This document shows, piece after piece, positions 1 through 14,046 of a stretch of 64,000 nt of DNA (positions within the stretch are counted from its first letter, which is position 1; the number at the start of each line of letters is the position of its first letter). This DNA comes from a virus. The stretch spans positions 1 to 64,000 of IMG/VR virus record IMGVR_UViG_3300033146_001635. The stretch is one strand, 5' to 3'. The position numbers and the translations under genes are program-made. The notes under the pieces were generated by a model, which was not told the DNA's origin, searched no databases, and saw only the letters and a list, made by a program, of their open reading frames with translations.

Positions 1-1011
1 ATATATTATAAAGATAAACAAAAATATCTAGAAACAATTGTACCCATAGAAGAAATAGCTCAATTAAAATCAATTAAGAGTACAATTAAATGGAGATATC
101 CAAAAATTAATAAACATCAATTTTCATCAATATTAAAATTCTTTAGGGATGTAAATAATAAACATTCCGCAGAATGTATGGTATTTATTGGATTTGATAG
201 AAAAGCAAAAAAAATGACTATTTTTCCACCGCACAAACAAGTAGTAACAGGTGCATCAATTAAATATGAAAACGCCCCAACACCGGGTATTTCTATTATT
301 GGAACAATTCACTCACATAATACAATGTCTGCCTTTCATTCAGGTATTGATATTAGAGATGAAATGGATTTTGATGGGTTACATATTACCATAGGTAAAT
401 TAACAGAACATGATGAATCGTTTGAAATATCGTGTCAATTTGTTGCAAATGCACATAGACAAGATGTTTCTTATGTAGATGTTATTGATGGTATTATTCG
501 AAAAAATAACGTCAATGCATCACAATATCTTAATAACCCAAAAAATATTGTTCAACAATTATTGGGTAAAACTTTAGGAATTTTCTATAATAATAAAGTG
601 CAGGTAATTTCATCTACACCAAAATTATTTCCTGAAATTTCATGTGATTCATTATCAGATGGATATAATAAAATTATTGATAAATGGCATCAAACTATAA
701 AAGTAAATACACTTACACTTAATAAATCAAAATATGGAAAACATTCAAATCTTTTTGGATATGGTGGATATACAGAAGAATTCTACACTCAACATTTTAA
801 TAAACATAAACACCATCCTATTTTAAATAAAGAAGTTCCATTTGAAAAGAAAGTCAATTTTGATGATGACTTTTTTATTAATGAAAATGGTGAAATTGAA
901 AGATTGGAAATGTTTGATAATGATGAAGATGATTTTGATTTTCTTATTGTTGATGATCAAAATATAGTTGATGAAGATGATGAAATAAATGAGGGTGTAT
1001 TACCATTTTAA
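1..1011 (+). CDS. JAB/MPN metalloprotease (prokaryotic JAB, PRTRC protein A-like), 5'-truncated by window edge
   Basis: Frame is open from base 1 (IYYKDKQKY...HSAECMVF). JAMM motif E...GTIHSHNTMSAFHSGIDIRDE (HxH-x7-S-x2-D), followed by GLHITIG; acidic tail. Confidence 0.85.
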   Translation: MYYKDKQKYLETIVPIEEIAQLKSIKSTIKWRYPKINKHQFSSILKFFRDVNNKHSAECMVFIGFDRKAKKMTIFPPHKQVVTGASIKYENAPTPGISIIGTIHSHNTMSAFHSGIDIRDEMDFDGLHITIGKLTEHDESFEISCQFVANAHRQDVSYVDVIDGIIRKNNVNASQYLNNPKNIVQQLLGKTLGIFYNNKVQVISSTPKLFPEISCDSLSDGYNKIIDKWHQTIKVNTLTLNKSKYGKHSNLFGYGGYTEEFYTQHFNKHKHHPILNKEVPFEKKVNFDDDFFINENGEIERLEMFDNDEDDFDFLIVDDQNIVDEDDEINEGVLPF

Positions 1012-1025
1012 AAGGGAGTTATAAT

Positions 1026-1736
1026 TTGAATAAAGTTAGTATTTATATTATTGGATTGGGGGGAATTGGTTCATGTTTGTGTGAACCAATTTGCCGTTAT
1101 ATTAATTATTTAGAAAATAGGAGAGATTATGACATAATATTAATTGATGGAGATTCCTATGATGATGGGAATCTTGCAAGACAATATTTTGAATGGGATG
1201 AAATAGGAGAAAATAAAGCTGAAGTCCAAGCTAAAAAAATGAAGAATAAATTTGAAGAATTAGATATAAAAACAGAAGCTATATATATCAATTCACAAAA
1301 TATTAAAAATACTATTGTTGATAATAGTATAATATTATCTGGGGTTGATAATCACAAAACCAGAAAAATTATTCAAGATCATTGTAATAAATTATCTAAT
1401 TGTTTATATATATCAGGTGGAAATTTTTACATTGATGGGGATGTAATTATTTTCGCTAAAAAGGATGGTGTACAGCTTTCACCAACTATTTATCAAGATC
1501 ATAAGGATATCGCCAATCCAACTGATCGAACACCTGATGAAATTGGGTGTGATGAATTAGTGGAATCTGTACCACAACTGTTGTTTACAAATGGAACAGT
1601 ATCTATTTGTATGCAATGGGCATTTTACAATTATTATAAATTATTTCAAGAAAATAATATAAGCATTTATAAAAATAAGATTAGTTTTGATATTTGTGAG
1701 ATGAGTGTTATATCTCGCAACAGACCTATTATTTAA
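1026..1736 (+). CDS. ThiF/E1-like ubiquitin-activating adenylyltransferase
   Basis: IIGLGGIG Rossmann motif, LIDGD...NLARQ, GENKAE, GVDNHKTR, candidate catalytic Cys in EIGCDE, PQLLFTN. Confidence 0.88.
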   Translation: MNKVSIYIIGLGGIGSCLCEPICRYINYLENRRDYDIILIDGDSYDDGNLARQYFEWDEIGENKAEVQAKKMKNKFEELDIKTEAIYINSQNIKNTIVDNSIILSGVDNHKTRKIIQDHCNKLSNCLYISGGNFYIDGDVIIFAKKDGVQLSPTIYQDHKDIANPTDRTPDEIGCDELVESVPQLLFTNGTVSICMQWAFYNYYKLFQENNISIYKNKISFDICEMSVISRNRPII

Positions 1737-1786
1737 ATTATTTAAAAAAGATAACTTTAACCACTTTTTTTCTTAGGAGAATTATT

Positions 1787-2371
1787 ATGAGTGTTATTGT
1801 CAATGGGCTCGAAGTTTTCACACTGGCTGAATTAAATGAAAAAACTGCTAAAGAGCTTCGGGCCCTTTGTGCGCAGTATAATCTTTCAAGATATTCAAAA
1901 GCCAATAAAACAACTCTTTTAGAAATGATTCGTAATTATTATGAAGAATTATTAAATAGTGAAACTGCATCTAATCTTAGAATAATTGCTGGAAATCTTG
2001 GTTATACTGGAATTTCTAAAACCACCAAAGCTAATTTAATTGATTTAATTCTTAATCATACTGATGCAGATAATGATGAAATTGATTTAAGTTCTGATGA
2101 AGAAGTTGACATTTCAGGTGGTGAGGAAATTGATATTTCCACACCTGATAAAAAAGATGATAAAATTACTGTAATTTATGGTGCAAAAAATCGTGAAGTT
2201 GACGATGAAGGCAAGAGTGTATGGGATATTCATGCCAATCTTGCTTCTGTTATGGGTCTTCCACAGAAGCCCGATTTTCGAGTCAATGACGCAGTTGTAA
2301 ATAATAACTATATTCCTACTGCGGGTGATTCGATTGAATTTTTCCGGACTGAGTCTGGGAATAAAGGTTAA
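1787..2371 (+). CDS. Ubiquitin-like protein with two N-terminal Rho_N/HeH-like repeats, acidic linker and C-terminal beta-grasp ending SGNKG
   Basis: Repeats LNEKTAKELRALCAQYNLSRYSKANKTTLLEMI and LNSETASNLRIIAGNLGYTGISKTTKANLIDLI. C-terminal ~70 aa KITVIYG...FRVND...AGDSIEFFRTESGNKG. RBS aggag. Confidence 0.75.
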   Translation: MSVIVNGLEVFTLAELNEKTAKELRALCAQYNLSRYSKANKTTLLEMIRNYYEELLNSETASNLRIIAGNLGYTGISKTTKANLIDLILNHTDADNDEIDLSSDEEVDISGGEEIDISTPDKKDDKITVIYGAKNREVDDEGKSVWDIHANLASVMGLPQKPDFRVNDAVVNNNYIPTAGDSIEFFRTESGNKG

Positions 2372-2378
2372 TATATAA

Positions 2379-2434
2379 TATGCCCCCACTATTATATATA
2401 CCTTGTGTGGTACACATATAGTAGTGGGGGCATA
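2379..2434 (+). terminator. Long GC-cored stem-loop after the Ubl gene (terminator or processing/stabilising hairpin)
   Basis: tatgcccccactattatat ... atatagtagtgggggcata; no clean U-tract. Confidence 0.6.
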
Positions 2435-2448
2435 ATTGGTTTATAATT

Positions 2449-2814
2449 ATGATTATTGATGAACTTTTAAAAGAAATTAAAGCAGATGAAAATTTAGAAA
2501 AATTAAAAATCATCTGTGATAAAATGCAATCCGAAGAAGTATATACTGAAGATTTTTTTAATTTGTCTGAGATATTGTATTATCACAAATATGATGAAAA
2601 CACCTTTTTTGAAAAGGTTTTAACTTTGTCTTTTGATATGTTGGCTGAAAATATTTACCATATTGATGAATGGCAAATAAATAAAGCTTTAAAAGATGGC
2701 GATGAAAAAAAATTTAAAAAAATTCAAACATATAGTTTACATACAATATTTGCAAAAAATGTATTAATGAAATACGCACAAATTTTGAAAAAGGCTATTA
2801 ATAATGGGAAGTGA
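2449..2814 (+). CDS. Hypothetical protein
   Basis: 121-aa ORF overlapping the next gene; no recognised motif. Confidence 0.6.
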   Translation: MIIDELLKEIKADENLEKLKIICDKMQSEEVYTEDFFNLSEILYYHKYDENTFFEKVLTLSFDMLAENIYHIDEWQINKALKDGDEKKFKKIQTYSLHTIFAKNVLMKYAQILKKAINNGK

Positions 2815-3643
2815 AATATCAATTATTGGTGTTGGTAGTATAGGCAAAACTTTATTGGATGCCTGTATAAAAACACAAATTTTTGATAAGATAAATATTA
2901 TTGATGGGGATAAAGTTAAAAAACATAACTATGTTTTTAATAATAAATTTTTAAATATACAAAAAGTTTATGCATGTAAGGAATTATATGGAAATAAAAT
3001 AAATCCTATTAATCAATATTTGTCATACGATAATCTAACAGATATAAAAAAATTAACTAATAAATCGCAGTTTATATTTGATTGTAGAGATGTTTTTGAT
3101 AATATAAATTTGCCAAAAACTATTAAATTGTATATAAACGATAGTAGATTGTTTATAAGTTCAATTAGTAAAGAATCTTTTAAATTTGAATTCAAAAGTG
3201 ATTATGTATCATTTACAGATTTAACTAAAATAGAAGATTTGATATTCAAATTTATCAAATATTTCACAAATAAAAATTTGTCAAATCACGATATTATTAT
3301 TAAAAATATATCAAATAAAAATAAAGCTGTTGTTATTAATACGTTAGGAAATATTGATATATTAGATTCTACAAAATATATTTTTTCAAAACAAATTAAA
3401 TCAAAATTAAATAAAATTGTTGAAACACAAAAAATAACTGATTTGAATATAATTGTTGAAGATGGTATTTATATTTTGTGTAATGAAAAATATAATTTGA
3501 ATTTACATCCAATTCATGATATTTTATATAATATTGAAAAAGAGTGTTCCCATTTTCCAGCTGCATTTGTATCCTATAGAATGTCATCTCGACATTCAAA
3601 TGAATTAATTATGACAATTCATAATCAAATAGGAGGCGCATAA
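2804..3643 (+). CDS. Divergent ThiF/E1-like protein with C-terminal ...QIGGA tail (possible fused Ubl)
   Basis: IIGVGSIG, IIDGD, QKVYACKE, FIFDCRD; lacks the NLxRQ motif; ends GG-A. Confidence 0.6.
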   Translation: MGSEISIIGVGSIGKTLLDACIKTQIFDKINIIDGDKVKKHNYVFNNKFLNIQKVYACKELYGNKINPINQYLSYDNLTDIKKLTNKSQFIFDCRDVFDNINLPKTIKLYINDSRLFISSISKESFKFEFKSDYVSFTDLTKIEDLIFKFIKYFTNKNLSNHDIIIKNISNKNKAVVINTLGNIDILDSTKYIFSKQIKSKLNKIVETQKITDLNIIVEDGIYILCNEKYNLNLHPIHDILYNIEKECSHFPAAFVSYRMSSRHSNELIMTIHNQIGGA

Positions 3644-4281
3644 TGTTAAATTGGGAAATGGATCTTGAAAAATTGAATATTAAAATTGTTCCAGTAGATA
3701 ATCCCAATTTAATTCAATTAACAACAGATATTAAACCACGATTTTTACAATACCAAGGTCTTTTAATTCCAATTAATATCAAACAAGAATATGTGTTAAA
3801 AACTAGTATTAATAATGTAGTGTTAGAAATAAAACGATTAAACCAACGATCAATTTTAGTTGATAAAATTTATATTTTAAATAGTATACACCCAAATGCT
3901 ATGACACTACCTTCAAATCCAATATTAGATTTGAATTTTGTTAATAATATTGTTTATCAATATTGTTTCAATAAATTTGTATTTGATGATGAAAATCCTA
4001 TTTCGTTTGTTAATCAAGTTGGGTATTTAATAAAATTTTTAGAAAAATGGAATTATGATGAAGCTTATTGGAGAGATTTTAAAATTATTGAAATTAATAT
4101 TGATGACCATGAAGTATGTATAGATCCAAATAATAACAATAAAATGTATAATAAAAAACAATTAAAGAAAAAATTATCACGCCATTCGAAAATCATTCAC
4201 ACTTCTATTATTTTAAATAAACTTTTAGGTATTCCTAGATTAGATATTGAAGATACCTTAAAAAAAATTTTCTTGGTTTAA
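3643..4281 (+). CDS. Putative E2-like (ubiquitin-conjugating fold) protein
   Basis: HPN motif (SIHPNA) followed by YQYCF and a W-N helix (FLEKWNYDEAY); coupled to the upstream gene via TAATG. Confidence 0.45.
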   Translation: MLNWEMDLEKLNIKIVPVDNPNLIQLTTDIKPRFLQYQGLLIPINIKQEYVLKTSINNVVLEIKRLNQRSILVDKIYILNSIHPNAMTLPSNPILDLNFVNNIVYQYCFNKFVFDDENPISFVNQVGYLIKFLEKWNYDEAYWRDFKIIEINIDDHEVCIDPNNNNKMYNKKQLKKKLSRHSKIIHTSIILNKLLGIPRLDIEDTLKKIFLV

Positions 4282-4287
4282 AAATAA

Positions 4288-4337
4288 AATTACCACCTTT
4301 TGAGATCTTAATAGTGAGATTTCAAAAGGTGGTAATT
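4288..4337 (+). terminator. Stem-loop closing the Ubl locus
   Basis: aattaccaccttttgagatctta / tgagatttcaaaaggtggtaatt. Confidence 0.65.
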
Positions 4338-4339
4338 CC

Positions 4340-4351
4340 AACATATAAATG
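4340..4351 (+). promoter_or_regulatory. AACA-N6-TG promoter motif upstream of the RNAP genes
   Basis: AACA TATAAA TG, identical to the core at 41673 and 61013. Confidence 0.55.
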
Positions 4352-4401
4352 CTACATCAATTCTGTCCTTTCTTTTTCTTTTTTTTCTAGGAGAAAAGTA
4401 T

Positions 4402-7170
4402 ATGCCCCAATTATTATCAAACGATTTTATGAAAGATTTACCAGAGATAACAACCTCAAAATATTTTGAAAAGAAAAAAAGATACCATAAAGATGGGTTA
4501 TTTTCTGAATATATTTTTGGTTTGGAAAATAATTATACATGTCATTGTGGTATTTATCACGGTAAAAGTGCTGAGGGCACAGTATGTAATGAAAAATGTT
4601 GCAATGGATTGCCTATTACACATTCTATTAAAAGACGCAGACAATATGCAAAAATAATATTACCAATTCCTGTTTTAAATAAAACTTTTTTATTACTATT
4701 AAAAAAAGTATTTCCAAACGAGAAAATTGTTGAAGCTATCACAAAAATAATGAAATCTTATAAAAATATTATTTATAAAAAAGATGGCGAATATTTTTTA
4801 AGAGAGCTTGGTGAAAACGAAGATTTAGATAAATTTGAATTGGAATACTATTCATTACATGAAGCTGCTGAAATATATTTAAAAGAAACAATTGAAAAAT
4901 ATAGATTGATAGATCCTGAAAATAAACAATTTAAAATGATTGATGATAATAAGGATAAATTGTTTATTAATGAAATTTTGGTTATACCACCTGATTTCAG
5001 ACCAATATCTCAAATAAATGCTAATACAAAATCTGTTGACCAAATTAATCAATATTATAATCAATTGTTAGTCAGAAAAGAAATTATGGCTAAAATTGAT
5101 ATGGACATTACACAACATATTAAAATTTATCATAATTATTATATACAATTTCAATATATTTATAATGAATTATATGAATATATCATTCAAAAAATTTCTA
5201 AAAAAGAGGGTTTAATCAGAGGGAATATTCTTGGAAAACGAATAGATTTTTCTGGTAGAGCTGTTATTGCACCATCCCCCAATATTAATTTGGATGAATG
5301 TATTCTTCCATATAAAATGGTTTTAGAATTATATAAGATTAAAATCGCAAAATATTTATATAATTCGGGAAAATTTAAATTTTTAAATCAGGCATTGTTA
5401 TGTGTTGAGGAATGTCAATTTTATAATGATCCAAGATTATTAGATATTTGTAAAAAAATAATAGGAGATGATGTTTGTATTTTAAATAGACAACCTAGTT
5501 TACACAAATTAAGTTTTATGGCATTTAAAATAAAAGTTGATATTGTTGATGTTATTTATATTCACCCAATGGTATGTCATGGATTTAATGCTGATTTTGA
5601 TGGGGACGCAATGGCAGTATATTTACCAATCACCCCTGAATCTCAAGAAGAAGCAAAACGACAAGCATTATCTACTAAAATGTTAATCAACCCAACTAAT
5701 ATGCAAATTATTACTTTACCAAGTCAAGAAATGATTTTGGGTTTGTATTTACTGAGTGTTGCAAAAGATGGTAAATATGGACAAAAATGTGAATTTAAAA
5801 ATGTTGAAATGACTTATGGTATGGCATTGATTAATAAATGTTTTCCAAAAGATTATAAAGTAATTACTGAAAAAATAACAACTAAATCTATATCTTCAAT
5901 AATATATGAAATTTTTAATAAACACCCTGATGAAATTGTTGAAGTTTTAGATAAAATTAAAACAACTGGTTTTAAATATGCAACTTTAATTGGGCATACC
6001 ATATCATTAAAAGGTATGACTTCAAATGAAAAATTAAAAAATGAAATTTATTCTAAGAAAACATCACAACAACAATTAAAAGCAATAACAAGTAACAAGG
6101 TTAAAAAATATTTACAAGAAAATTTTATATATACTGATATGATTGAATCTGGTGCAAGAGGGAGTTGGGACCAAGCTAGACAATTAATATTAACAAGAGG
6201 ATTTGTATCTAATTTCAAAGGTACTATTTTACCAATTCCTGTTAAAAATTGTTTAGTTGATGGATTGACACCAACTGAATTTTTCTTATCTTCATATGGA
6301 TGTCGCAAGGGATTGCTAGATATTGCAATCAAAACAGCATCATCAGGTTATTTATTTAGAAAATTTCTTTTCGCTTGTTCTAATTTAATGATTGATTATG
6401 AAAATGAAGATTGTGGTACAACTGATTTATTAGGGGTGTATATAAATGATTTGAAAAAAGCATATTCAGTCAAAGGTCGTTGGTATGCGCCAGATCCTGA
6501 AAAACCAACAGAATTAGAATTAATTACAGATGCAAATTTAAATAACATAATTAATAAACGAATATTTATACGTAGTCCCATTTTCTGCAAAACAAAAAAA
6601 TTGTGTAAAACATGTTATGGTAAATTATATGAATATTTAAATAATAGCCGTTTTGTTGGATCTATTGCTGCTCAATCACTTGGAGAATCAAATACTCAAA
6701 TGGTATTAAGAACTTTCCATACATCTGGTGTTGCTATAACAAAAAATAAAGATGTTACTGAAAATGAAACAGAAAATAAAAAAATGAAACAAGATGATAT
6801 TGTCGGTGCATTAACATTAATATCACAACTTGTTCATAAATTTGATTCATCTGTTACATGCGATATATTGGTTGAACAATTACATCATATTTATTCAGAT
6901 GGAAGATTTTTCATGTTAATACATTTTGAATGTTTAGTTGCACAATTGATGTGGAGTGCTAGAAAAAAATGGAGATTATTGCCAAACCGTGACAAAGTAT
7001 CATACGAATTAAATTCGATAGTTGCGGTTCCATCATTAGAAAGTTGGTTAATGGGATTAGCATTTTCAAATACAAAAAGAGAATTAATCAATGGATTATT
7101 AGAACCTGGATTGTATTCTGGAGGTGTTATTGATAAAATATTATGTGGTGTATCATATAAAGATATTTAA
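4402..7170 (+). CDS. rpoC: Phage multisubunit RNA polymerase, beta'-like catalytic subunit (streamlined, 922 aa)
   Basis: N-terminal Zn ribbon (CHCG..CNEKCC), KEGLIRGNILGKRIDFSGRAVI, NRQPSLH, catalytic NADFDGD, GARG, KTASSGY, AAQSLGE..TQMVLRTFH. Confidence 0.95.
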   Translation: MPQLLSNDFMKDLPEITTSKYFEKKKRYHKDGLFSEYIFGLENNYTCHCGIYHGKSAEGTVCNEKCCNGLPITHSIKRRRQYAKIILPIPVLNKTFLLLLKKVFPNEKIVEAITKIMKSYKNIIYKKDGEYFLRELGENEDLDKFELEYYSLHEAAEIYLKETIEKYRLIDPENKQFKMIDDNKDKLFINEILVIPPDFRPISQINANTKSVDQINQYYNQLLVRKEIMAKIDMDITQHIKIYHNYYIQFQYIYNELYEYIIQKISKKEGLIRGNILGKRIDFSGRAVIAPSPNINLDECILPYKMVLELYKIKIAKYLYNSGKFKFLNQALLCVEECQFYNDPRLLDICKKIIGDDVCILNRQPSLHKLSFMAFKIKVDIVDVIYIHPMVCHGFNADFDGDAMAVYLPITPESQEEAKRQALSTKMLINPTNMQIITLPSQEMILGLYLLSVAKDGKYGQKCEFKNVEMTYGMALINKCFPKDYKVITEKITTKSISSIIYEIFNKHPDEIVEVLDKIKTTGFKYATLIGHTISLKGMTSNEKLKNEIYSKKTSQQQLKAITSNKVKKYLQENFIYTDMIESGARGSWDQARQLILTRGFVSNFKGTILPIPVKNCLVDGLTPTEFFLSSYGCRKGLLDIAIKTASSGYLFRKFLFACSNLMIDYENEDCGTTDLLGVYINDLKKAYSVKGRWYAPDPEKPTELELITDANLNNIINKRIFIRSPIFCKTKKLCKTCYGKLYEYLNNSRFVGSIAAQSLGESNTQMVLRTFHTSGVAITKNKDVTENETENKKMKQDDIVGALTLISQLVHKFDSSVTCDILVEQLHHIYSDGRFFMLIHFECLVAQLMWSARKKWRLLPNRDKVSYELNSIVAVPSLESWLMGLAFSNTKRELINGLLEPGLYSGGVIDKILCGVSYKDI

Positions 7171-7181
7171 AAATATAAGGG

Positions 7182-10100
7182 GTGAAAATGTATCAAAACA
7201 ATCCTGATTTAAAATTACCAGAAATAAATATTTTTAATCTACGAAAATTAGATGATTTAAAATTAATGGACACTATTGAAGAAATTTTAAAAGTGCCTAT
7301 TAAATATGGATTTAAACTAGAAGAATTTTCTAAATCAGATATTAGATATACTGGACATAATCTAGTTAATACAATTAAAGAAAATATTAATGTAAAATTA
7401 TCTAAAAATAATAATATTGTTGATTTATCAATGCAGATTCCAAAACTTGTTGATAATCAATGGTTTGTAATTAACGGTAGAAGAAAAATACCAAGGTTCC
7501 AATTATATGATATTCCGTTGTTGACATTATATTTTAAAAATGAAATTCGTTTTCATAGTAATGTAGGAAGAATTGGTATCTATTGGACGGATAATAAAAA
7601 GAAAGCTCCTTCATTTGTATCAATAGCTAGTTTATCCAAAAAAATTCCTCTATCTATTGTTTTATATGCCTTTTATGGTATAGAAAAAGTAGAAGAACTA
7701 TTTTTAAAAGATGTGGATGAAGATGAATTAAATAAAATTCCTAATGACAAAAAATCAATTCTTCAATTATTACAATTGGATTTAATAGATGCTTATTCAG
7801 AAGTTACACAAGAAATGTATATTGAAGCAATTGGAGATTATTTTTCAAGAAAAAATCCAAAAGAAAAAGGTGAAGATTATATTTTCACTTTAGAAAATAT
7901 TTTGGATATTGATGTAATAGCAAAAAAATTTATTCCACATGATAATATTTTGGATTGTTTATGTGATATTCTTATTAATGAAATACAACTTGATGATACA
8001 GATTATTTAAATAAAAGATTGAGATGTTATGAATATGCTATTATTCAATATTTTATGGAAAATATTTATAAATTATGTTTGACATGTAGAAATTCAAATA
8101 AACCTAAATATAATATTAATAAAACAAAAATTTTAGCAAGTTGCAATGTTTCAGAAATTATTCAATATGATTTTTGTATTAACCCAGTTGAACAATTAAC
8201 TAAATTAACACAGTGTACGTTATCTGGGCCGGGTGGATTTAAAAAGGAATCAATACCTATAAAATTAAGGGATTTAAATCAATCAATGATAGGTAAAATA
8301 TGCCCCGTTGATACACCAGATAGAGAAAACTGTGGTGTTGTACAAAATGTAACACCAGTTGTCAAATTTGATAATAATTTTAAATTTTTAGAAGATAATA
8401 CGAAAGTAATTCCATCATTAGCTGTTTCAATGGTTCCATTTTTAGAACATGATGATACTACTAGATTACAAATGGCAGCTTCTCAAATGAGACAAGCTAT
8501 ATTACTTGATAATTTTCAAGTGCCATTGGTTTGTTCTGGTGTGGAAAAACAATTTACTGAATTTACTAGTTTTATAGAATATGCAAAAGATGATGGTGAA
8601 GTTATATACAAAGATACTAAAAAACTTATTATTGGATATAAAAATGGTGAAATAAAAATAATTGATATAGGTATTAAAAAAATTCTATCTGATAATATGA
8701 GTCATATGACTACCGTATTAAATATCGGTGATAAATTTAATAAAGGTGATATAATTGCATCAAGTTCATTTTGTAATGATGGTCTTATTAAAATAGGTAG
8801 AAATTTTAAAGTTGCATTTATGTCATACTATGGATATAACAACGAAGATGGAATTGTTATTTCTGATAAACTTGTTAAAGATAATTCATTGACATCTGTT
8901 CATTATCTTGATTTATCATTTAATATATCTCCTAATAAAGTATTAGAAAGATTAATTGATTCAGAAGTATATACACCTTTATTTCCAGTTGGAACTAGAT
9001 TAAAAAAGGGTGATGTGTATGCTAGATTAAAAGATATGTACTTATTTGGCTCAATCAAAGATCAAGTTTATGATATTTTTAAAGATAGTCAAGAAAAAAT
9101 AACACCAAAAGATATTTTAATTACAGATATAAAAATATATGCAAATGAATGGCATACAGAATTAAAAGAATATGATGCATGGATTAAATATAATATTCAA
9201 AAACAAATTGATTATGGTAATAAAATTATTAATATTATTAAAGATAATTCAGATGAAGCTACGGCTAAAAAATTAATTACAGAACACCGACTTGATGAAT
9301 TAATGTATCCAAAACAATATAAAAGAAAAGATGAGAAATTAAAAGGTGTTCACATTGAAATGACTGCTGTATATGAAAGACCAATTCAAGTGGGTGATAA
9401 ATTAGCTAATAGACATGGTAATAAGGGTGTTATTACATCTATTATGAGCCATGAAACAATGCCACAGCTACCCAATGGTGAACATGTTGAAATCTGTTTA
9501 AACCCAATGGGCGTGTTATCAAGAATGAATTTGGGGCAATTATTTGAATTTCATTTAAGTGAAGCTTTAATGAAATTCAAAAATATTCTTAAACAAATGT
9601 TAAAAGATAATTGCAAACAAGATGATATTAAAAAATTAATAATGTCATTTATAAAAATGACAGATAAAACTGATACACAATGGATTTCACATAGTTTCAA
9701 AGAATATTTGCCAGAAATTATAGATGAAAAATTTATCGATGATTTGTATTTAATTCAACCACAATTTAACTCTATATCAAAAGATGATATGGATAAAATT
9801 ATGGATTTTGTTGAATGTGAATACGAAATAGAATTATATGATCCTGTATCAAAGGAAAAAATTGAATCTAAAATTGCTGTCGGATATATGTATCTTATGA
9901 AACTGATTCATATTGCAGAAAATAAATTAGCATATAGAAGCATATCTACACTATCTAGAAAAACCATGCAACCCACTGCTGGTAAAAAATTAAATGGTGG
10001 GCAAAGATGTGGTGAAATGGAAAGTGGCTGTGCTGTATCAAATGATATGCCAATAAATCAGACAGAATTTTATACAATTAAATCCGATTGTATAGATGCA

Positions 10101-10238
10101 AAAAATAATTATTTAAAACAAGAATTAAACACAGAATTTACAATGATTAAAGAAAATCCAGATATGGAACCTGAAACAATTAAATTGCTTAGATCTAATT
10201 TAAGAGTTTTGGGTATTGATTTTGATGGAGAATTATAA
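7182..10238 (+). CDS. rpoB: Phage multisubunit RNA polymerase, beta-like subunit (1018 aa)
   Basis: GPGG, ICPVDTPDRENCG, PFLEHDD..R..M...QMRQA, GYNNEDGIVIS, GDKLANRHGNKGV, LNPMGVLSRMNLGQ, GGQRCGEME. Confidence 0.95.
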   Translation: MKMYQNNPDLKLPEINIFNLRKLDDLKLMDTIEEILKVPIKYGFKLEEFSKSDIRYTGHNLVNTIKENINVKLSKNNNIVDLSMQIPKLVDNQWFVINGRRKIPRFQLYDIPLLTLYFKNEIRFHSNVGRIGIYWTDNKKKAPSFVSIASLSKKIPLSIVLYAFYGIEKVEELFLKDVDEDELNKIPNDKKSILQLLQLDLIDAYSEVTQEMYIEAIGDYFSRKNPKEKGEDYIFTLENILDIDVIAKKFIPHDNILDCLCDILINEIQLDDTDYLNKRLRCYEYAIIQYFMENIYKLCLTCRNSNKPKYNINKTKILASCNVSEIIQYDFCINPVEQLTKLTQCTLSGPGGFKKESIPIKLRDLNQSMIGKICPVDTPDRENCGVVQNVTPVVKFDNNFKFLEDNTKVIPSLAVSMVPFLEHDDTTRLQMAASQMRQAILLDNFQVPLVCSGVEKQFTEFTSFIEYAKDDGEVIYKDTKKLIIGYKNGEIKIIDIGIKKILSDNMSHMTTVLNIGDKFNKGDIIASSSFCNDGLIKIGRNFKVAFMSYYGYNNEDGIVISDKLVKDNSLTSVHYLDLSFNISPNKVLERLIDSEVYTPLFPVGTRLKKGDVYARLKDMYLFGSIKDQVYDIFKDSQEKITPKDILITDIKIYANEWHTELKEYDAWIKYNIQKQIDYGNKIINIIKDNSDEATAKKLITEHRLDELMYPKQYKRKDEKLKGVHIEMTAVYERPIQVGDKLANRHGNKGVITSIMSHETMPQLPNGEHVEICLNPMGVLSRMNLGQLFEFHLSEALMKFKNILKQMLKDNCKQDDIKKLIMSFIKMTDKTDTQWISHSFKEYLPEIIDEKFIDDLYLIQPQFNSISKDDMDKIMDFVECEYEIELYDPVSKEKIESKIAVGYMYLMKLIHIAENKLAYRSISTLSRKTMQPTAGKKLNGGQRCGEMESGCAVSNDMPINQTEFYTIKSDCIDAKNNYLKQELNTEFTMIKENPDMEPETIKLLRSNLRVLGIDFDGEL

Positions 10239-11095
10239 TGTCAGCATTACCAGATGTTCAAGAAAATGACGCTCCGATTGTAGTTTTCCCCATCAATCTC
10301 GTTGGAGTTGATAATATTAAATTACCCTTTACATTATTATTACGAGATGCATATTATGATAAACATGAAATCGATTTAGTGGCGAATACATCGATTTCAA
10401 CAAATTTGGTTGCAAACGTGAAAGGCATATCAATGTCTAGATTATTAGAAGCAATCAGACCTTATTTGCATAAAGGGTTAAATTGGGAAATTTTGAAAAA
10501 TTGTTTAGATGCTGTGTGTAATTCAATAGGACAAAATGAAGCAAAAATAAAAATGTCTTTTGATTTGCCTATGATAAAAAAATCTCCATTGAGTAAAAAT
10601 AAATATCCTTTATTTCATTCATGTTATTTTGAAGGATATAAAAAAGAAAATAATTATAAATTTCATCAATTTGTAAAAGTACAATATTCTTCATATTGTC
10701 CATGTTCAGCTGCGTTGTCAAAAGAATTGGATACGCAAGGATTTCCTCATGCGCAAAGATCTTTTGCACACATTCTAGTTGATATGGATTTAAAAAATAA
10801 AAAACAAATATGGTTAGAAGATATTATTGATTTAGTTTTGAATAATATTAAAACACAACCATACCCTATAATCAAGCGAGTTGATGAACAAGAAATAGCA
10901 AAAATTGCATCTGAAAATCCATTATTTGTGGAAGATGCAATTAGAATTTTATCAAAAAAATTATCAGAATTAGATGGCATTATTGATTGGTGTGTTAGAT
11001 GTGTGCATGAAGAATCTATACATTGTCATGATGCAATTGCAGTTAATTGGAAATATGTTGAAAACGGATTTGATTTTCATTCCATAGAACCATAA
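10238..11095 (+). CDS. folE2: GTP cyclohydrolase IB (FolE2/MptA family)
   Basis: LPDVQ, KGISMSRL, SYCPCS, PHAQRS, KRVDE, NPLFVEDAIR, HEESIHCHDA; overlaps the beta stop (TAATG). Confidence 0.92.
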   Translation: MSALPDVQENDAPIVVFPINLVGVDNIKLPFTLLLRDAYYDKHEIDLVANTSISTNLVANVKGISMSRLLEAIRPYLHKGLNWEILKNCLDAVCNSIGQNEAKIKMSFDLPMIKKSPLSKNKYPLFHSCYFEGYKKENNYKFHQFVKVQYSSYCPCSAALSKELDTQGFPHAQRSFAHILVDMDLKNKKQIWLEDIIDLVLNNIKTQPYPIIKRVDEQEIAKIASENPLFVEDAIRILSKKLSELDGIIDWCVRCVHEESIHCHDAIAVNWKYVENGFDFHSIEP

Positions 11096-12842: not shown

Positions 12843-13123
12843 TGTATGACAAAATACTTGAACACGTTATTAAATTACATCGAAAAAAAATAGATAAATA
12901 TATGTTAAAAATCATAAAATCAAATGTAGCATCTAAATGCCCCAAAAAATTAAAAGAAGTTGAAACATATGAAGGTGGATTTTTGGAAGATGAAGATCAA
13001 AAACGATTATTATTCTGGACGAATCCTGAAATTCAAAATAAAGATGATAAAATAGTTGCAACATTTAAAATAAACAATAAAGAAGAAAAATTAATAATTG
13101 AGGAAACAGTGCAATGGAAATAA
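12827..13123 (+). CDS. Hypothetical protein
   Basis: 98-aa ORF in a tightly packed operon. Confidence 0.55.
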   Translation: MSGTIMYDKILEHVIKLHRKKIDKYMLKIIKSNVASKCPKKLKEVETYEGGFLEDEDQKRLLFWTNPEIQNKDDKIVATFKINNKEEKLIIEETVQWK

Positions 13124-14046
13124 CACCATTGTTAGAATACCCAATAGGTTCTTTTTTATATGGTACAAATACTGAAAATTCTGACAAAGATTATGCAGGT
13201 GTTTTTGTTGCTGAAATAGATTATTATTTTGGTTTAAAAAATATAAAAGAAGCTGATATGTCAATTAAATCCAAAGATGCCTATAATAAAAATACTTCCG
13301 AGGCTATAGATAAAAAATTTTATGAATTAAAAAGATTTATAAATTTAGCCAAAGATAATAATCCAACTATAATTGAGCAGTTGTTTATACCTCGTGATAA
13401 ATTGATATATCATAATACAAATGGTCTTAAATTACTTGAACATAAAAAAGATTTTTTACATAAAGGATTGTATTATAGATTTTTAGGTTATGCATATTCT
13501 CAAAAGAAAAAAATGATAATCAAATTAGATAATTATAAAGATTATGAATATGTTAGAGATGTAATACAAAATGCAGATCCAAGAGATACACTTTTTCATA
13601 TTAGGGATAAAATAAAAAAATTTATTTTTAAAGATGAACATATAAAAGTTGGTGATATAAAAATTCCAATGGGAATTTTAAATAAAAAAGCTTTAGATAT
13701 TTTAAATAAAAGATTTAAAAATTTAAGTAATAGAACAATTTTAATCAAAAAATACGGGTATGATACTAAATTTGCATCACATTTAATTCGATTGGTTTTA
13801 GAAGGAATTGAATTACTCAAAACAAAAAATCTTATATTTCCATTACAACAAGCTAATTATATTAAGGATATTAAAAAAGGAAAATATGGATTAGATGATG
13901 TATTAAATGATTTTGATAAATTAGAGAAACAAATAAAAAATGTATGTGAAAATTCTGATTTACCTAAATACCCTGATTTTAATAAATTAAATAAACTTTC
14001 TATTGATTTGATTTATCATCAATTAAAAATAAATCAAGTTATATAA
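13114..14046 (+). CDS. Pol-beta superfamily nucleotidyltransferase (RlaP / Nuc-transf-like)
   Basis: GSFLYGTNTENSDKDYAGVF, NPTIIEQLF, FLGYAYSQ, YDTKFASHLIRL, IKKGKY. Confidence 0.85.
   Translation: MEITPLLEYPIGSFLYGTNTENSDKDYAGVFVAEIDYYFGLKNIKEADMSIKSKDAYNKNTSEAIDKKFYELKRFINLAKDNNPTIIEQLFIPRDKLIYHNTNGLKLLEHKKDFLHKGLYYRFLGYAYSQKKKMIIKLDNYKDYEYVRDVIQNADPRDTLFHIRDKIKKFIFKDEHIKVGDIKIPMGILNKKALDILNKRFKNLSNRTILIKKYGYDTKFASHLIRLVLEGIELLKTKNLIFPLQQANYIKDIKKGKYGLDDVLNDFDKLEKQIKNVCENSDLPKYPDFNKLNKLSIDLIYHQLKINQVI

Follow-up and report, generated by a model that had tools for sequence, protein, structure and literature searches.

The first 4,281 nucleotides of the virus record IMGVR_UViG_3300033146_001635 carry a cassette of six genes whose predicted products include a JAB-type metallopeptidase, an E1 enzyme, a ubiquitin-like protein (Ubl), a second E1-like protein as well as one that resembles E2 enzymes. 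On balance we favor the reading that this cassette is a phage version of the PRTRC/6d type of Ubl system, enlarged by a second E1-like/E2-like pair. The window studied here comprises bases 1-64000 of the 94,583-base linear IMG/VR record, and the contig begins within the cassette: its first gene is cut, and the region upstream of it cannot be read. According to CheckV the record is 26% complete, which puts the whole genome at roughly 300-360 kb; the status of the virus as a 'jumbo' phage depends on this estimate. That it is a tailed phage is shown by genes for terminase, tail sheath, baseplate and tail fibers in the record.

PRTRC, the ParB-Related, ThiF-Related Cassette, is covered by the NCBIfam models TIGR03734-03741. 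Judging by gene content and by the organisms listed, we take it to be the operon that Iyer, Burroughs and Aravind designated type 6d in 2006 (PMC1779556), a class that was predicted bioinformatically in that study.

Six head-to-tail open reading frames (ORFs), all on the + strand, fill positions 1-4281 of the window at the coordinates from which the original prediction had started:

1-1011, + strand: A, predicted JAMM/JAB metallopeptidase of the PRTRC_A type, truncated at its 5' end (Prok-JAB and PRTRC_A matches, JAMM motif)
1026-1736, + strand: B, predicted E1/ThiF adenylating enzyme, 236 aa (ThiF match, 1.3e-18)
1787-2371, + strand: C, predicted Ubl whose ThiS-like beta-grasp follows an acidic linker and two Rho_N/SAP (HeH) repeats (Rho_N match, ESM Atlas)
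2449-2814, + strand: D, small conserved protein, 121 aa (orthologues in the related contigs L003 and L007)
2804-3643, + strand: E, predicted second E1-like protein with an extra C-terminal domain (AlphaFold2 (AF2) model, Foldseek, VIA)
3643-4281, + strand: F, putative diverged E2/UBC-like protein with HPN at 83-85 and Cys108 (AF2 model, VIA-align, family alignment)

Neighboring genes are separated by 14-77 nt, except that D runs 11 nt into E and that the stop codon of E and the start codon of F overlap as TAATG; E and F are predicted to be translationally coupled. The six proteins span 121-366 aa, and E and F were modeled with confidence. The identities originally proposed for these products, namely a JAMM protease, a ThiF/E1 with a Cys, a Gly-ended Ubl, a second E1-like protein and an HPN..C protein, survived testing. 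In the overall reading of the locus this parts list stood, whereas the kinship with PRTRC, the likely truncation, gene D and the near-invariant GGA end of E had been missed or understated.

The same cassette occurs in related phage contigs. L007 (IMG/VR, 102 kb, 33% complete) has the order JAB - E1 - Ubl - D - E - F - beta' - beta, as in the window, with identities of 39% (JAB), 60% (E1), 46% (Ubl), 40% (D), 37% (E) and 28% (F) for the cassette proteins and of 62% and 57% for RNA polymerase beta' and beta. Parts of the order are present in L002 (E1 - Ubl), L003 (Ubl - D - E - F) and L006 (E - F - beta'; 53 kb, 17% complete), and E, F and an RNA polymerase gene are adjacent in three of three contigs (window, L006, L007). 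The cassette is not a chance assembly, since its order recurs fully in L007 and partially in L002, L003 and L006; it is a stable feature, always next to the polymerase, of a small clade of uncultured large phages. Scans of viral contigs with B alone, with the Ubl alignment or with the F alignment gave nothing, the E alignment alone gave L006 and L007, and a metagenome scan returned two short contigs only. In tblastn searches against 50,697 GenBank phage records C, E and F had no match, and a literature search found no paper on a phage-encoded E1/E2/Ubl/JAB system.

The JAB, E1 and Ubl core and its PRTRC relatives

A is predicted to be a JAMM/MPN+ metallopeptidase with an intact zinc site. It matched Prok-JAB (E-value 9.7e-5) and PRTRC_A (7.6e-6), both under the curated cut-offs; PRTRC_A was the sole NCBIfam match, at 25.6 bits for the truncated copy versus a cut-off of 101.8 bits. 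The L007 orthologue of 350 aa, relative to which A is about 30 N-terminal residues short, matched PRTRC_A at 4.9e-12 and 45.8 bits (cut-off 101.8) over model positions 18-180 of 192. In A the JAMM zinc site H-x-H-x7-S-x2-D is complete (HSHNTMSAFHSGID, nt 310-351, residues 104-117 of the open frame) and is preceded by Glu58; the L007 JAB has the same site.

By its sequence, B is clearly an E1/ThiF adenylating enzyme of the active type. The match to Pfam ThiF (1.3e-18, 67.5 bits) lies above the 28.1-bit cut-off, and the best NCBIfam match was PRTRC_ThiF (1.6e-17, 63.7 bits, model positions 10-226 of 245; cut-off 144.75 bits). Every adenylation motif is kept, including GxGxxG (aa 10), DxD, NLARQ (aa 49), the Lys and DN..R. 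Cys175 (within E-I-G-C-D-E) does not vary across an alignment that extends to homologues from Bacillus phages and a Butyrivibrio plasmid at 27-30% identity, and from its position alone it is plausibly the thioester Cys. The closest relatives of B with solved structures, by sequence, are the peptide-modifying ThiF-type enzymes AclA and MccB. PADLOC gave partial E1-core matches only (best 2.1e-9, about 120 residues of a 602-position model).

C is predicted to be a ubiquitin-like beta-grasp protein with a free C-terminal Gly. Its N-terminal part matched Rho_N (2.7e-8) in two stretches. In the ESM Atlas the 73-residue C-terminal domain (residues 122-194) resembled viral clusters bearing ThiS, with a feature score of 0.91 and a structural TM of 0.84, as well as Ub-RnfH with a TM of 0.76. 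One claim on which the original prediction had staked its interpretation, a beta-grasp at the C-terminal end of 1787-2371, is thus borne out as a ThiS-like domain. The protein ends in ...SGNKG with a free terminal Gly, and the homologues P0002 and P0003 (45-54% identity) have a G-x-K-G end at the same place. The L007 Ubl (8901-9509), which matched Pfam ThiS at 0.002 and 19.1 bits versus a cut-off of 22.5 bits, continues for nine residues (IIGTLLKKC) past the conserved Gly, at which C and two other homologues stop. This tail would imply proteolytic maturation at exactly the conserved Gly; since it starts right after that residue, it points to a tag with a reactive Gly carboxylate and, in L007, to a maturation job for the JAB. 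One Atlas neighbor of C is a 154-aa cluster, 98% viral, and because 15% of its members carry Rho_N the combination of Rho_N and beta-grasp may be more widely spread among phages. C had no NCBIfam match to PRTRC_C, isolated C-terminal pieces of C and of E matched nothing in Pfam, and no useful match came up when PDB sequences were searched with profiles of the C and F families. Orthologues of D occupy the corresponding place in L003 and L007; 32 alignment columns are invariant, many of them charged. The one family match of D, DUF7834, was sub-threshold.

Homologues of B are encoded on large plasmids of Bacillus cereus/thuringiensis, Nostoc/Trichormus, Clostridium and similar bacteria, and they include Bacillus and Nostocales records listed for operon 6d (PMC1779556). 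On Trichormus plasmid C the annotated order is E2 family D - MPN/JAB - ThiF. Because of the best family matches of A and B, these plasmid homologues and the order E2_D - JAB - ThiF, the core of the locus would be a distant member or a sister of the PRTRC/6d lineage. Shared with that lineage are an extra N-terminal region of the JAB with a conserved Trp-Arg, as described for 6d (PMC1779556), a small Ubl that ends in Gly, a conserved small protein that evolves fast, carriage on mobile elements and the order E2 - JAB - E1 in the plasmid and phage relatives. As to differences, the Ubl of the window does not fit the PRTRC_C model and bears two HeH repeats, the pair formed by the GGA-ended E1-like protein and the HPN-type E2-like protein has no 6d counterpart, and the E2 of 6d lacks the classical His (PMC1779556). 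In addition, the E2_D-like domain of L007 heads a 777-aa protein, and a 685-aa gene lies between it and the JAB gene. A homologue of the PRTRC ParB (TIGR03734) was not matched in the window record or in L006 and L007, the latter two and the window record being 17-33% complete.

A related triad is present in cultured Bacillus jumbo phages. In vB_BauM_KLEB27-3, gp196 matched Prok-E2_D (2.7e-4) and PRTRC_B (1.1e-3), gp195 has a PRTRC_A domain and gp194 matched PRTRC_ThiF (7.7e-31). Like the cassette this triad is phage-borne, set among genes of nucleic-acid metabolism and of the same JAB/E1 lineage, with an E1 that is 31% identical to B and includes the invariant Cys; unlike the cassette it is not beside an RNA polymerase, and nothing matching C, E or F was found in these phages by tblastn.

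On the Butyrivibrio plasmid pNP144 (L004, 2936-6615) a further PRTRC-like arrangement is part of a replication module. There, 0.5-3 kb upstream of a B-like ThiF gene and among genes for a helicase, Pol III delta and SSB, two proteins are encoded: one of 558 aa that includes a JAB-like stretch at its C-terminal end, and a member of the Rad52/Rad22 family.

An E2 of the PRTRC_B/Prok-E2_D type was not found in the 94.6-kb fragment, in which the position upstream of the JAB gene lies off the contig. Further E2 or E3 genes upstream of the cassette, a point left for checking by the original prediction, are therefore beyond reach in the window itself, but L007 offers a sub-threshold candidate. Upstream of its JAB gene a RecD/Dda-like helicase gene is followed by two large genes (2649-7059), the first for a protein of 777 aa and the second, next to the JAB gene, for one of 685 aa that had no matches. 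The N-terminal 250 residues of the 777-aa protein contain a Prok-E2_D match (0.0016-0.0074, sub-threshold) around P-L-P-N-L-Y-D-S-G-Q-V-C; the rest of the protein had no matches. Neither protein was found in the 94.6-kb record, as is expected if their genes lie before base 1. Because L007 has this Prok-E2_D-like domain two genes upstream of its JAB, the cassette is probably truncated in the window and F is probably a second E2. The 777-aa and 685-aa proteins may form an E2/E3-like or target-recognition part.

The second E1-like protein and its E2-like partner

A profile search with E gave 12 further homologues, and conservation was counted over 14 sequences. The AF2 model of E reached a pLDDT of 87 and a pTM of 0.85. 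Foldseek matched it at an E-value of 3e-7 to PaaA, UBA5, MoeB and ThiF, and in VIA comparisons residues 1 to about 195 scored Z 14.0 with UBA5, 13.7 with Cap2, 13.2 with SAE1, MoeB and BubCD and 12.9 with APPBP1. According to this model, residues 1-195 make up an entire E1 adenylation fold that lacks the Arg finger. Invariant in the family are G-x-G-S-x-G-K, D-x-D, a Lys and D-C-R-D, while most homologues have Tyr, and the window copy has Phe, in place of the Arg of NLxRQ; when E was aligned to Uba4, the NLxRQ stretch was absent.

The fold is followed, at about residues 197-279, by an extra helix and a beta-beta-alpha-beta-beta unit (213-274 by DSSP) and finally by the tail Q-I-G-G-A. The tail was modeled with lower confidence (pLDDT 77) and is probably flexible. 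Q-x-G-G-A forms the C-terminus in 13 of the 14 homologues at about 33% identity, P0026 having lost the GGA end. The topology together with the di-Gly tail suggests that the C-terminal domain of E is a fused Ubl.

For F, an exhaustive HMMER search yielded nine other representatives. HPN (83-85; H-P-N-A) is found in eight of nine full-length members, with HAN in the other, and Cys108 in all nine, besides two invariant Trp. The AF2 model built on the family alignment reached a pLDDT of 89 and a pTM of 0.82. When this model was compared by VIA-align with 48,161 chains, about 27 of the top 30 were E2/UBC chains, among them Citrobacter BubCD-BubB-BubA and Enterobacter Cap2, with Z values of 5.0-6.5 (Cap2 5.3), 98-116 aligned residues (about 111) and a root-mean-square deviation of 3.5-4.7 Å (about 4); chains of the UEV/RWD type came further down, at ranks 32-44. 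Because of the uniform VIA list and the HPN...Cys motif, a diverged UBC fold is the best reading of F and a highly probable one. That F also acts as a catalytic E2 is a prediction we hold with less assurance, although we think it has a good chance of being right. In PHROGs F had chance-level matches only, with E-values above 0.05.

The properties of E and F can also be read in terms of a single pathway, in which the upstream E2 domain, the JAB, B and C would be the only catalytic parts. E would then be a pseudo-E1 partner of B, similar to the inactive half of eukaryotic and Bil E1s, with its GGA end serving as a pocket-plugging or regulatory tail that is not conjugated, and F would be a UEV/RWD-like adaptor that chooses targets. 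The missing Arg of NLxRQ in E fits this, as do the inactive SAE1 (Z 13.2) and APPBP1 (12.9) among its top structural matches, the UEV/RWD-type chains at ranks 32-44 in the list for F, the loss of GGA in P0026 and the fact that F evolves fastest, with 28% identity to its L007 counterpart. A pure scaffold would, however, have no need of the invariant G-x-G-S-x-G-K, D-x-D, Lys and D-C-R-D of E, and retention of HPN and Cys in nine of nine full-length F homologues (one with HAN) and of the GGA end in 13 of 14 E homologues at about 33% identity also speaks against it. We regard a single pathway as unlikely, if still the best of the alternatives to an enlarged PRTRC/6d system.

The junction with the RNA polymerase genes

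Downstream of F the following features were found:

4288-4338, + strand: perfect hairpin of 23 bp that separates the cassette from the RNA polymerase genes (folding versus shuffles)
4402-7170: RNA polymerase beta', unsplit, 922 aa (ORF list, family match)
7182-10238: RNA polymerase beta, 1018 aa (ORF list, family match)

The cassette thus lies directly upstream of the phage RNA polymerase, as had been claimed, with beta' starting at 4402. The hairpin has a folding energy of -31.3 kcal/mol (z -8.3; 0 of 200 shuffles folded equally well) and probably marks the end of the operon. L007 has a different hairpin at the same site after F, and in both sequences the 11-mer ATTCCAACATA stands directly 3' of the hairpin (region 4288-4345 of the window, 11465-11520 of L007). 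This 11-mer is not enriched across the window (8 matches versus 5.3 expected). Hairpin and ATTCCAACATA may combine a terminator with a conserved element that acts as promoter or processing site of the polymerase operon. A sigma-70 promoter scan gave background level only, and a search for tRNA genes found none.

The order beta' before beta is the reverse of the bacterial gene order and is alike in L007 (11588-17451), whereas in L006 (1786-6308) beta' is split in two by an inserted gene for a 375-aa DUF7487 protein. The closest cultured beta' belongs to Rhizobium phages of 207 kb (27% identity); in this RHph_Y65 group, which has the closest cultured unsplit beta', no E1 or JAB was found near the polymerase. 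The beta'-beta order and the G+C content of the window of about 25% had raised the possibility of a plastid or eukaryotic-virus origin, which terminase, tail sheath and baseplate genes ruled out.

Next to the polymerase genes, folE2 (10238-11095; type IB GTP cyclohydrolase, Pfam GCHY-1 2.9e-61) begins on the final base of the beta stop codon and may feed a modified-base or folate pathway. At 13114-14046 a nucleotidyltransferase of the polymerase-beta family and RlaP type (RNA repair) is encoded (Pfam 2.3e-23, phrog_388 8e-60).

Proposed chemistry, alternative readings and meaning of the cassette

The cassette shows partial resemblance to several known systems. With the PADLOC models for Bil, CBASS Cap2-Cap3 and Bub, partial E1-core matches were obtained on B only and none on A, C, D and F. 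Because the Cap2-type E1-E2 and BilD models match only the E1 core of B, the cassette is neither Bil, nor CBASS, nor Bub. With Bil (BilABCD) it shares the logic of Ubl, E2, JAB and E1. The E1 of Bil unites an inactive and an active adenylation domain (PMC11601596), something that B and E might do in trans. In contrast to the cassette, Bil is a host-encoded defense system with a single-polypeptide E1 that includes a Cys domain, and its sole match here was a weak partial hit of BilD on B (1e-4). In type II CBASS an enzyme that is not a Ubl is conjugated by its own C-terminal tail via E1-E2 and released again by a JAB, a precedent for the GGA end of E, and Cap2 ranks near the top in the structural comparisons of E (Z 13.7) as well as of F (Z 5.3); Cap2, however, is a fusion of E2 and E1, and the cassette has no CD-NTase or effector. 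The likeness to Bub (6E/DUF6527) consists in a Ubl fused to a pathway enzyme and released or trimmed by a JAB and in Ubls with varied N-terminal domains (PMC11601596), and the structural matches of E, like those of F, include BubCD chains. Bub differs in using Ser/Tyr oxyesters and a DUF6527 protease, whereas B and F keep a conserved Cys and the cassette has no DUF6527. Tail assembly proteins I and K of lambda and T1, described earlier (PMC1779556), likewise pair a JAB with a Gly-ended beta-grasp in phages, but they lack E1 and E2 and belong to a tail module, while the cassette lies in a nucleic-acid/transcription module.

From the chemistry of the E1, E2, Ubl and JAB families a course of reactions can be proposed for the cassette. 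B would bind ATP and adenylate the terminal Gly of C, which in the window phage would be made already mature, and C would be handed to the invariant Cys175 of B. From there C would pass to the Cys of an E2, the candidates being F with its Cys108 and/or the E2 domain of PRTRC type that in relatives is encoded upstream of the JAB, at a distance of two genes. The E2 would move C onto an amine of the target and thereby graft two nucleic-acid-binding HeH repeats onto it, and the JAB would trim precursor tails, as needed in L007, and/or take the tag off again. E would be both a partner subunit of B and a second, tag-bearing substrate that is conjugated through its own tail; this tail, once activated by B or else in trans, would be passed to the coupled E2, F. 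We favor such a dual role, which has precedents in the conjugation of the CD-NTase tail by Cap2 and in the Ubl-enzyme fusions of Bub.

As a hypothesis, the HeH repeats on the tag and the fixed place beside the RNA polymerase genes, in L007 after a helicase, point to nucleic-acid-associated proteins as targets, as do the replication and recombination neighbors of PRTRC-like triads in plasmids and Bacillus phages. A more elaborate version would have two tags and two enzyme tiers, with the HeH-bearing C and the GGA-ended E as tags, F as a classical HPN-type E2 dedicated to E, and the transcription or replication machinery of the phage as target. We put this version forward as a speculative and rather unlikely one.

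A number of observations weigh against a PRTRC/6d system enlarged in this way. All scores with PRTRC models are far under the curated cut-offs, the literature search found no experiment on PRTRC, and the upstream E2_D-like domain is sub-threshold and comes from one relative only. Without its Arg finger E may adenylate nothing. Support for the beta-grasp in its C-terminal domain comes solely from predicted topology, and hhalign detected no relation between the Ubl of C and this domain (probability 0.07). The UBC fold originally proposed for 3643-4281 is backed by the E2/UBC chains that head the VIA list, but it is weakened by Z values of only 5-6.5, a range below the secure level in which, as the tool warns, common arrangements also score, and by Foldseek, which found no match at an E-value ≤ 0.001 in PDB and BFVD. 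By sequence, F matched no E2 family, neither PRTRC_B nor Prok-E2, in Pfam, NCBIfam, PADLOC or the PDB profile search. Its HPN and Cys are 22 residues apart and connected through a low-confidence loop, compared with a spacing of about 7 residues in classical E2s. Where absences are used in the argument, they come from a fragment that is 26% complete and are weak evidence. Finally, operons of JAB, E1 and ThiS/MoaD-like proteins exist that serve sulfur assimilation (PMC1779556).

A different question, one of biological purpose rather than chemistry, is whether the cassette works in counter-defense. The JAB would then strip host tags of the Bil or CBASS type, and the phage Ubl, E1 and E2 would compete with or mis-tag host defense proteins. 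Bil, type II CBASS and Bub are host Ubl systems directed against phages, and a phage tail protein is among the things tagged by Bil (PMC11601596). The low identities of F (28%) and E (37%) relative to the polymerase (57-62%) would also fit an arms-race interface. The cassette, however, has no likeness to Bil, Cap2/Cap3 or Bub past the generic E1 domain, it occupies a conserved core place beside the RNA polymerase genes and not a variable island, and its PRTRC relatives reside on plasmids and integrative and conjugative elements (ICEs), where an anti-phage-defense role is not obvious. We consider this purpose improbable.

It is very unlikely that C, perhaps together with the tail of E, is a sulfur carrier of the kind of ThiS, MoaD, CysO or TtuB, converted to a thiocarboxylate for a modified nucleotide, cofactor or peptide, with a JAB that only matures the carrier. 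The ThiS-like beta-grasp of C and the sulfur operons with JAB, E1 and ThiS/MoaD-like genes (PMC1779556) would suit such a role, and so would the peptide-modifying AclA and MccB as closest solved relatives of B and the presence of folE2 6 kb downstream in a phage that may make modified bases. Against this, in the 94.6-kb fragment, though incomplete, no gene for a rhodanese, a PP-loop ATPase or a desulfurase-type or synthase enzyme was found, in line with the original prediction that sulfur-transfer and cofactor genes are missing nearby, and neither the E2-like F with its HPN and Cys nor the E2-like domain of the relatives would serve sulfur transfer. Moreover, we know of no precedent for a sulfur carrier with a large N-terminus of HeH repeats.

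A phage with its own tagging kit is not new in itself, the PRTRC/6d lineage being annotated in cultured Bacillus jumbo phages. New are the second E1-like protein that lacks the Arg finger and ends in Q-x-G-G-A, the E2-like gene of the HPN type coupled to it, and the Ubl that bears HeH repeats. To our knowledge, bacterial Ubl conjugation has been shown experimentally only in host antiviral systems, namely type II CBASS, Bil and Bub. The fixed core place of the cassette beside the RNA polymerase genes argues instead for a role in the phage life cycle and not in defense. For the PRTRC/6d class, which is common on plasmids and ICEs and in many phages, reconstitution in vitro could give its first biochemistry; by gene synthesis this is realistic, because the six proteins are small and two of them were modeled with confidence. 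If the version with two tags and two enzyme tiers is true, the cassette would be the first phage-run conjugation cascade in which an enzyme itself serves as a tag, and it would offer a functional entry to the PRTRC class.

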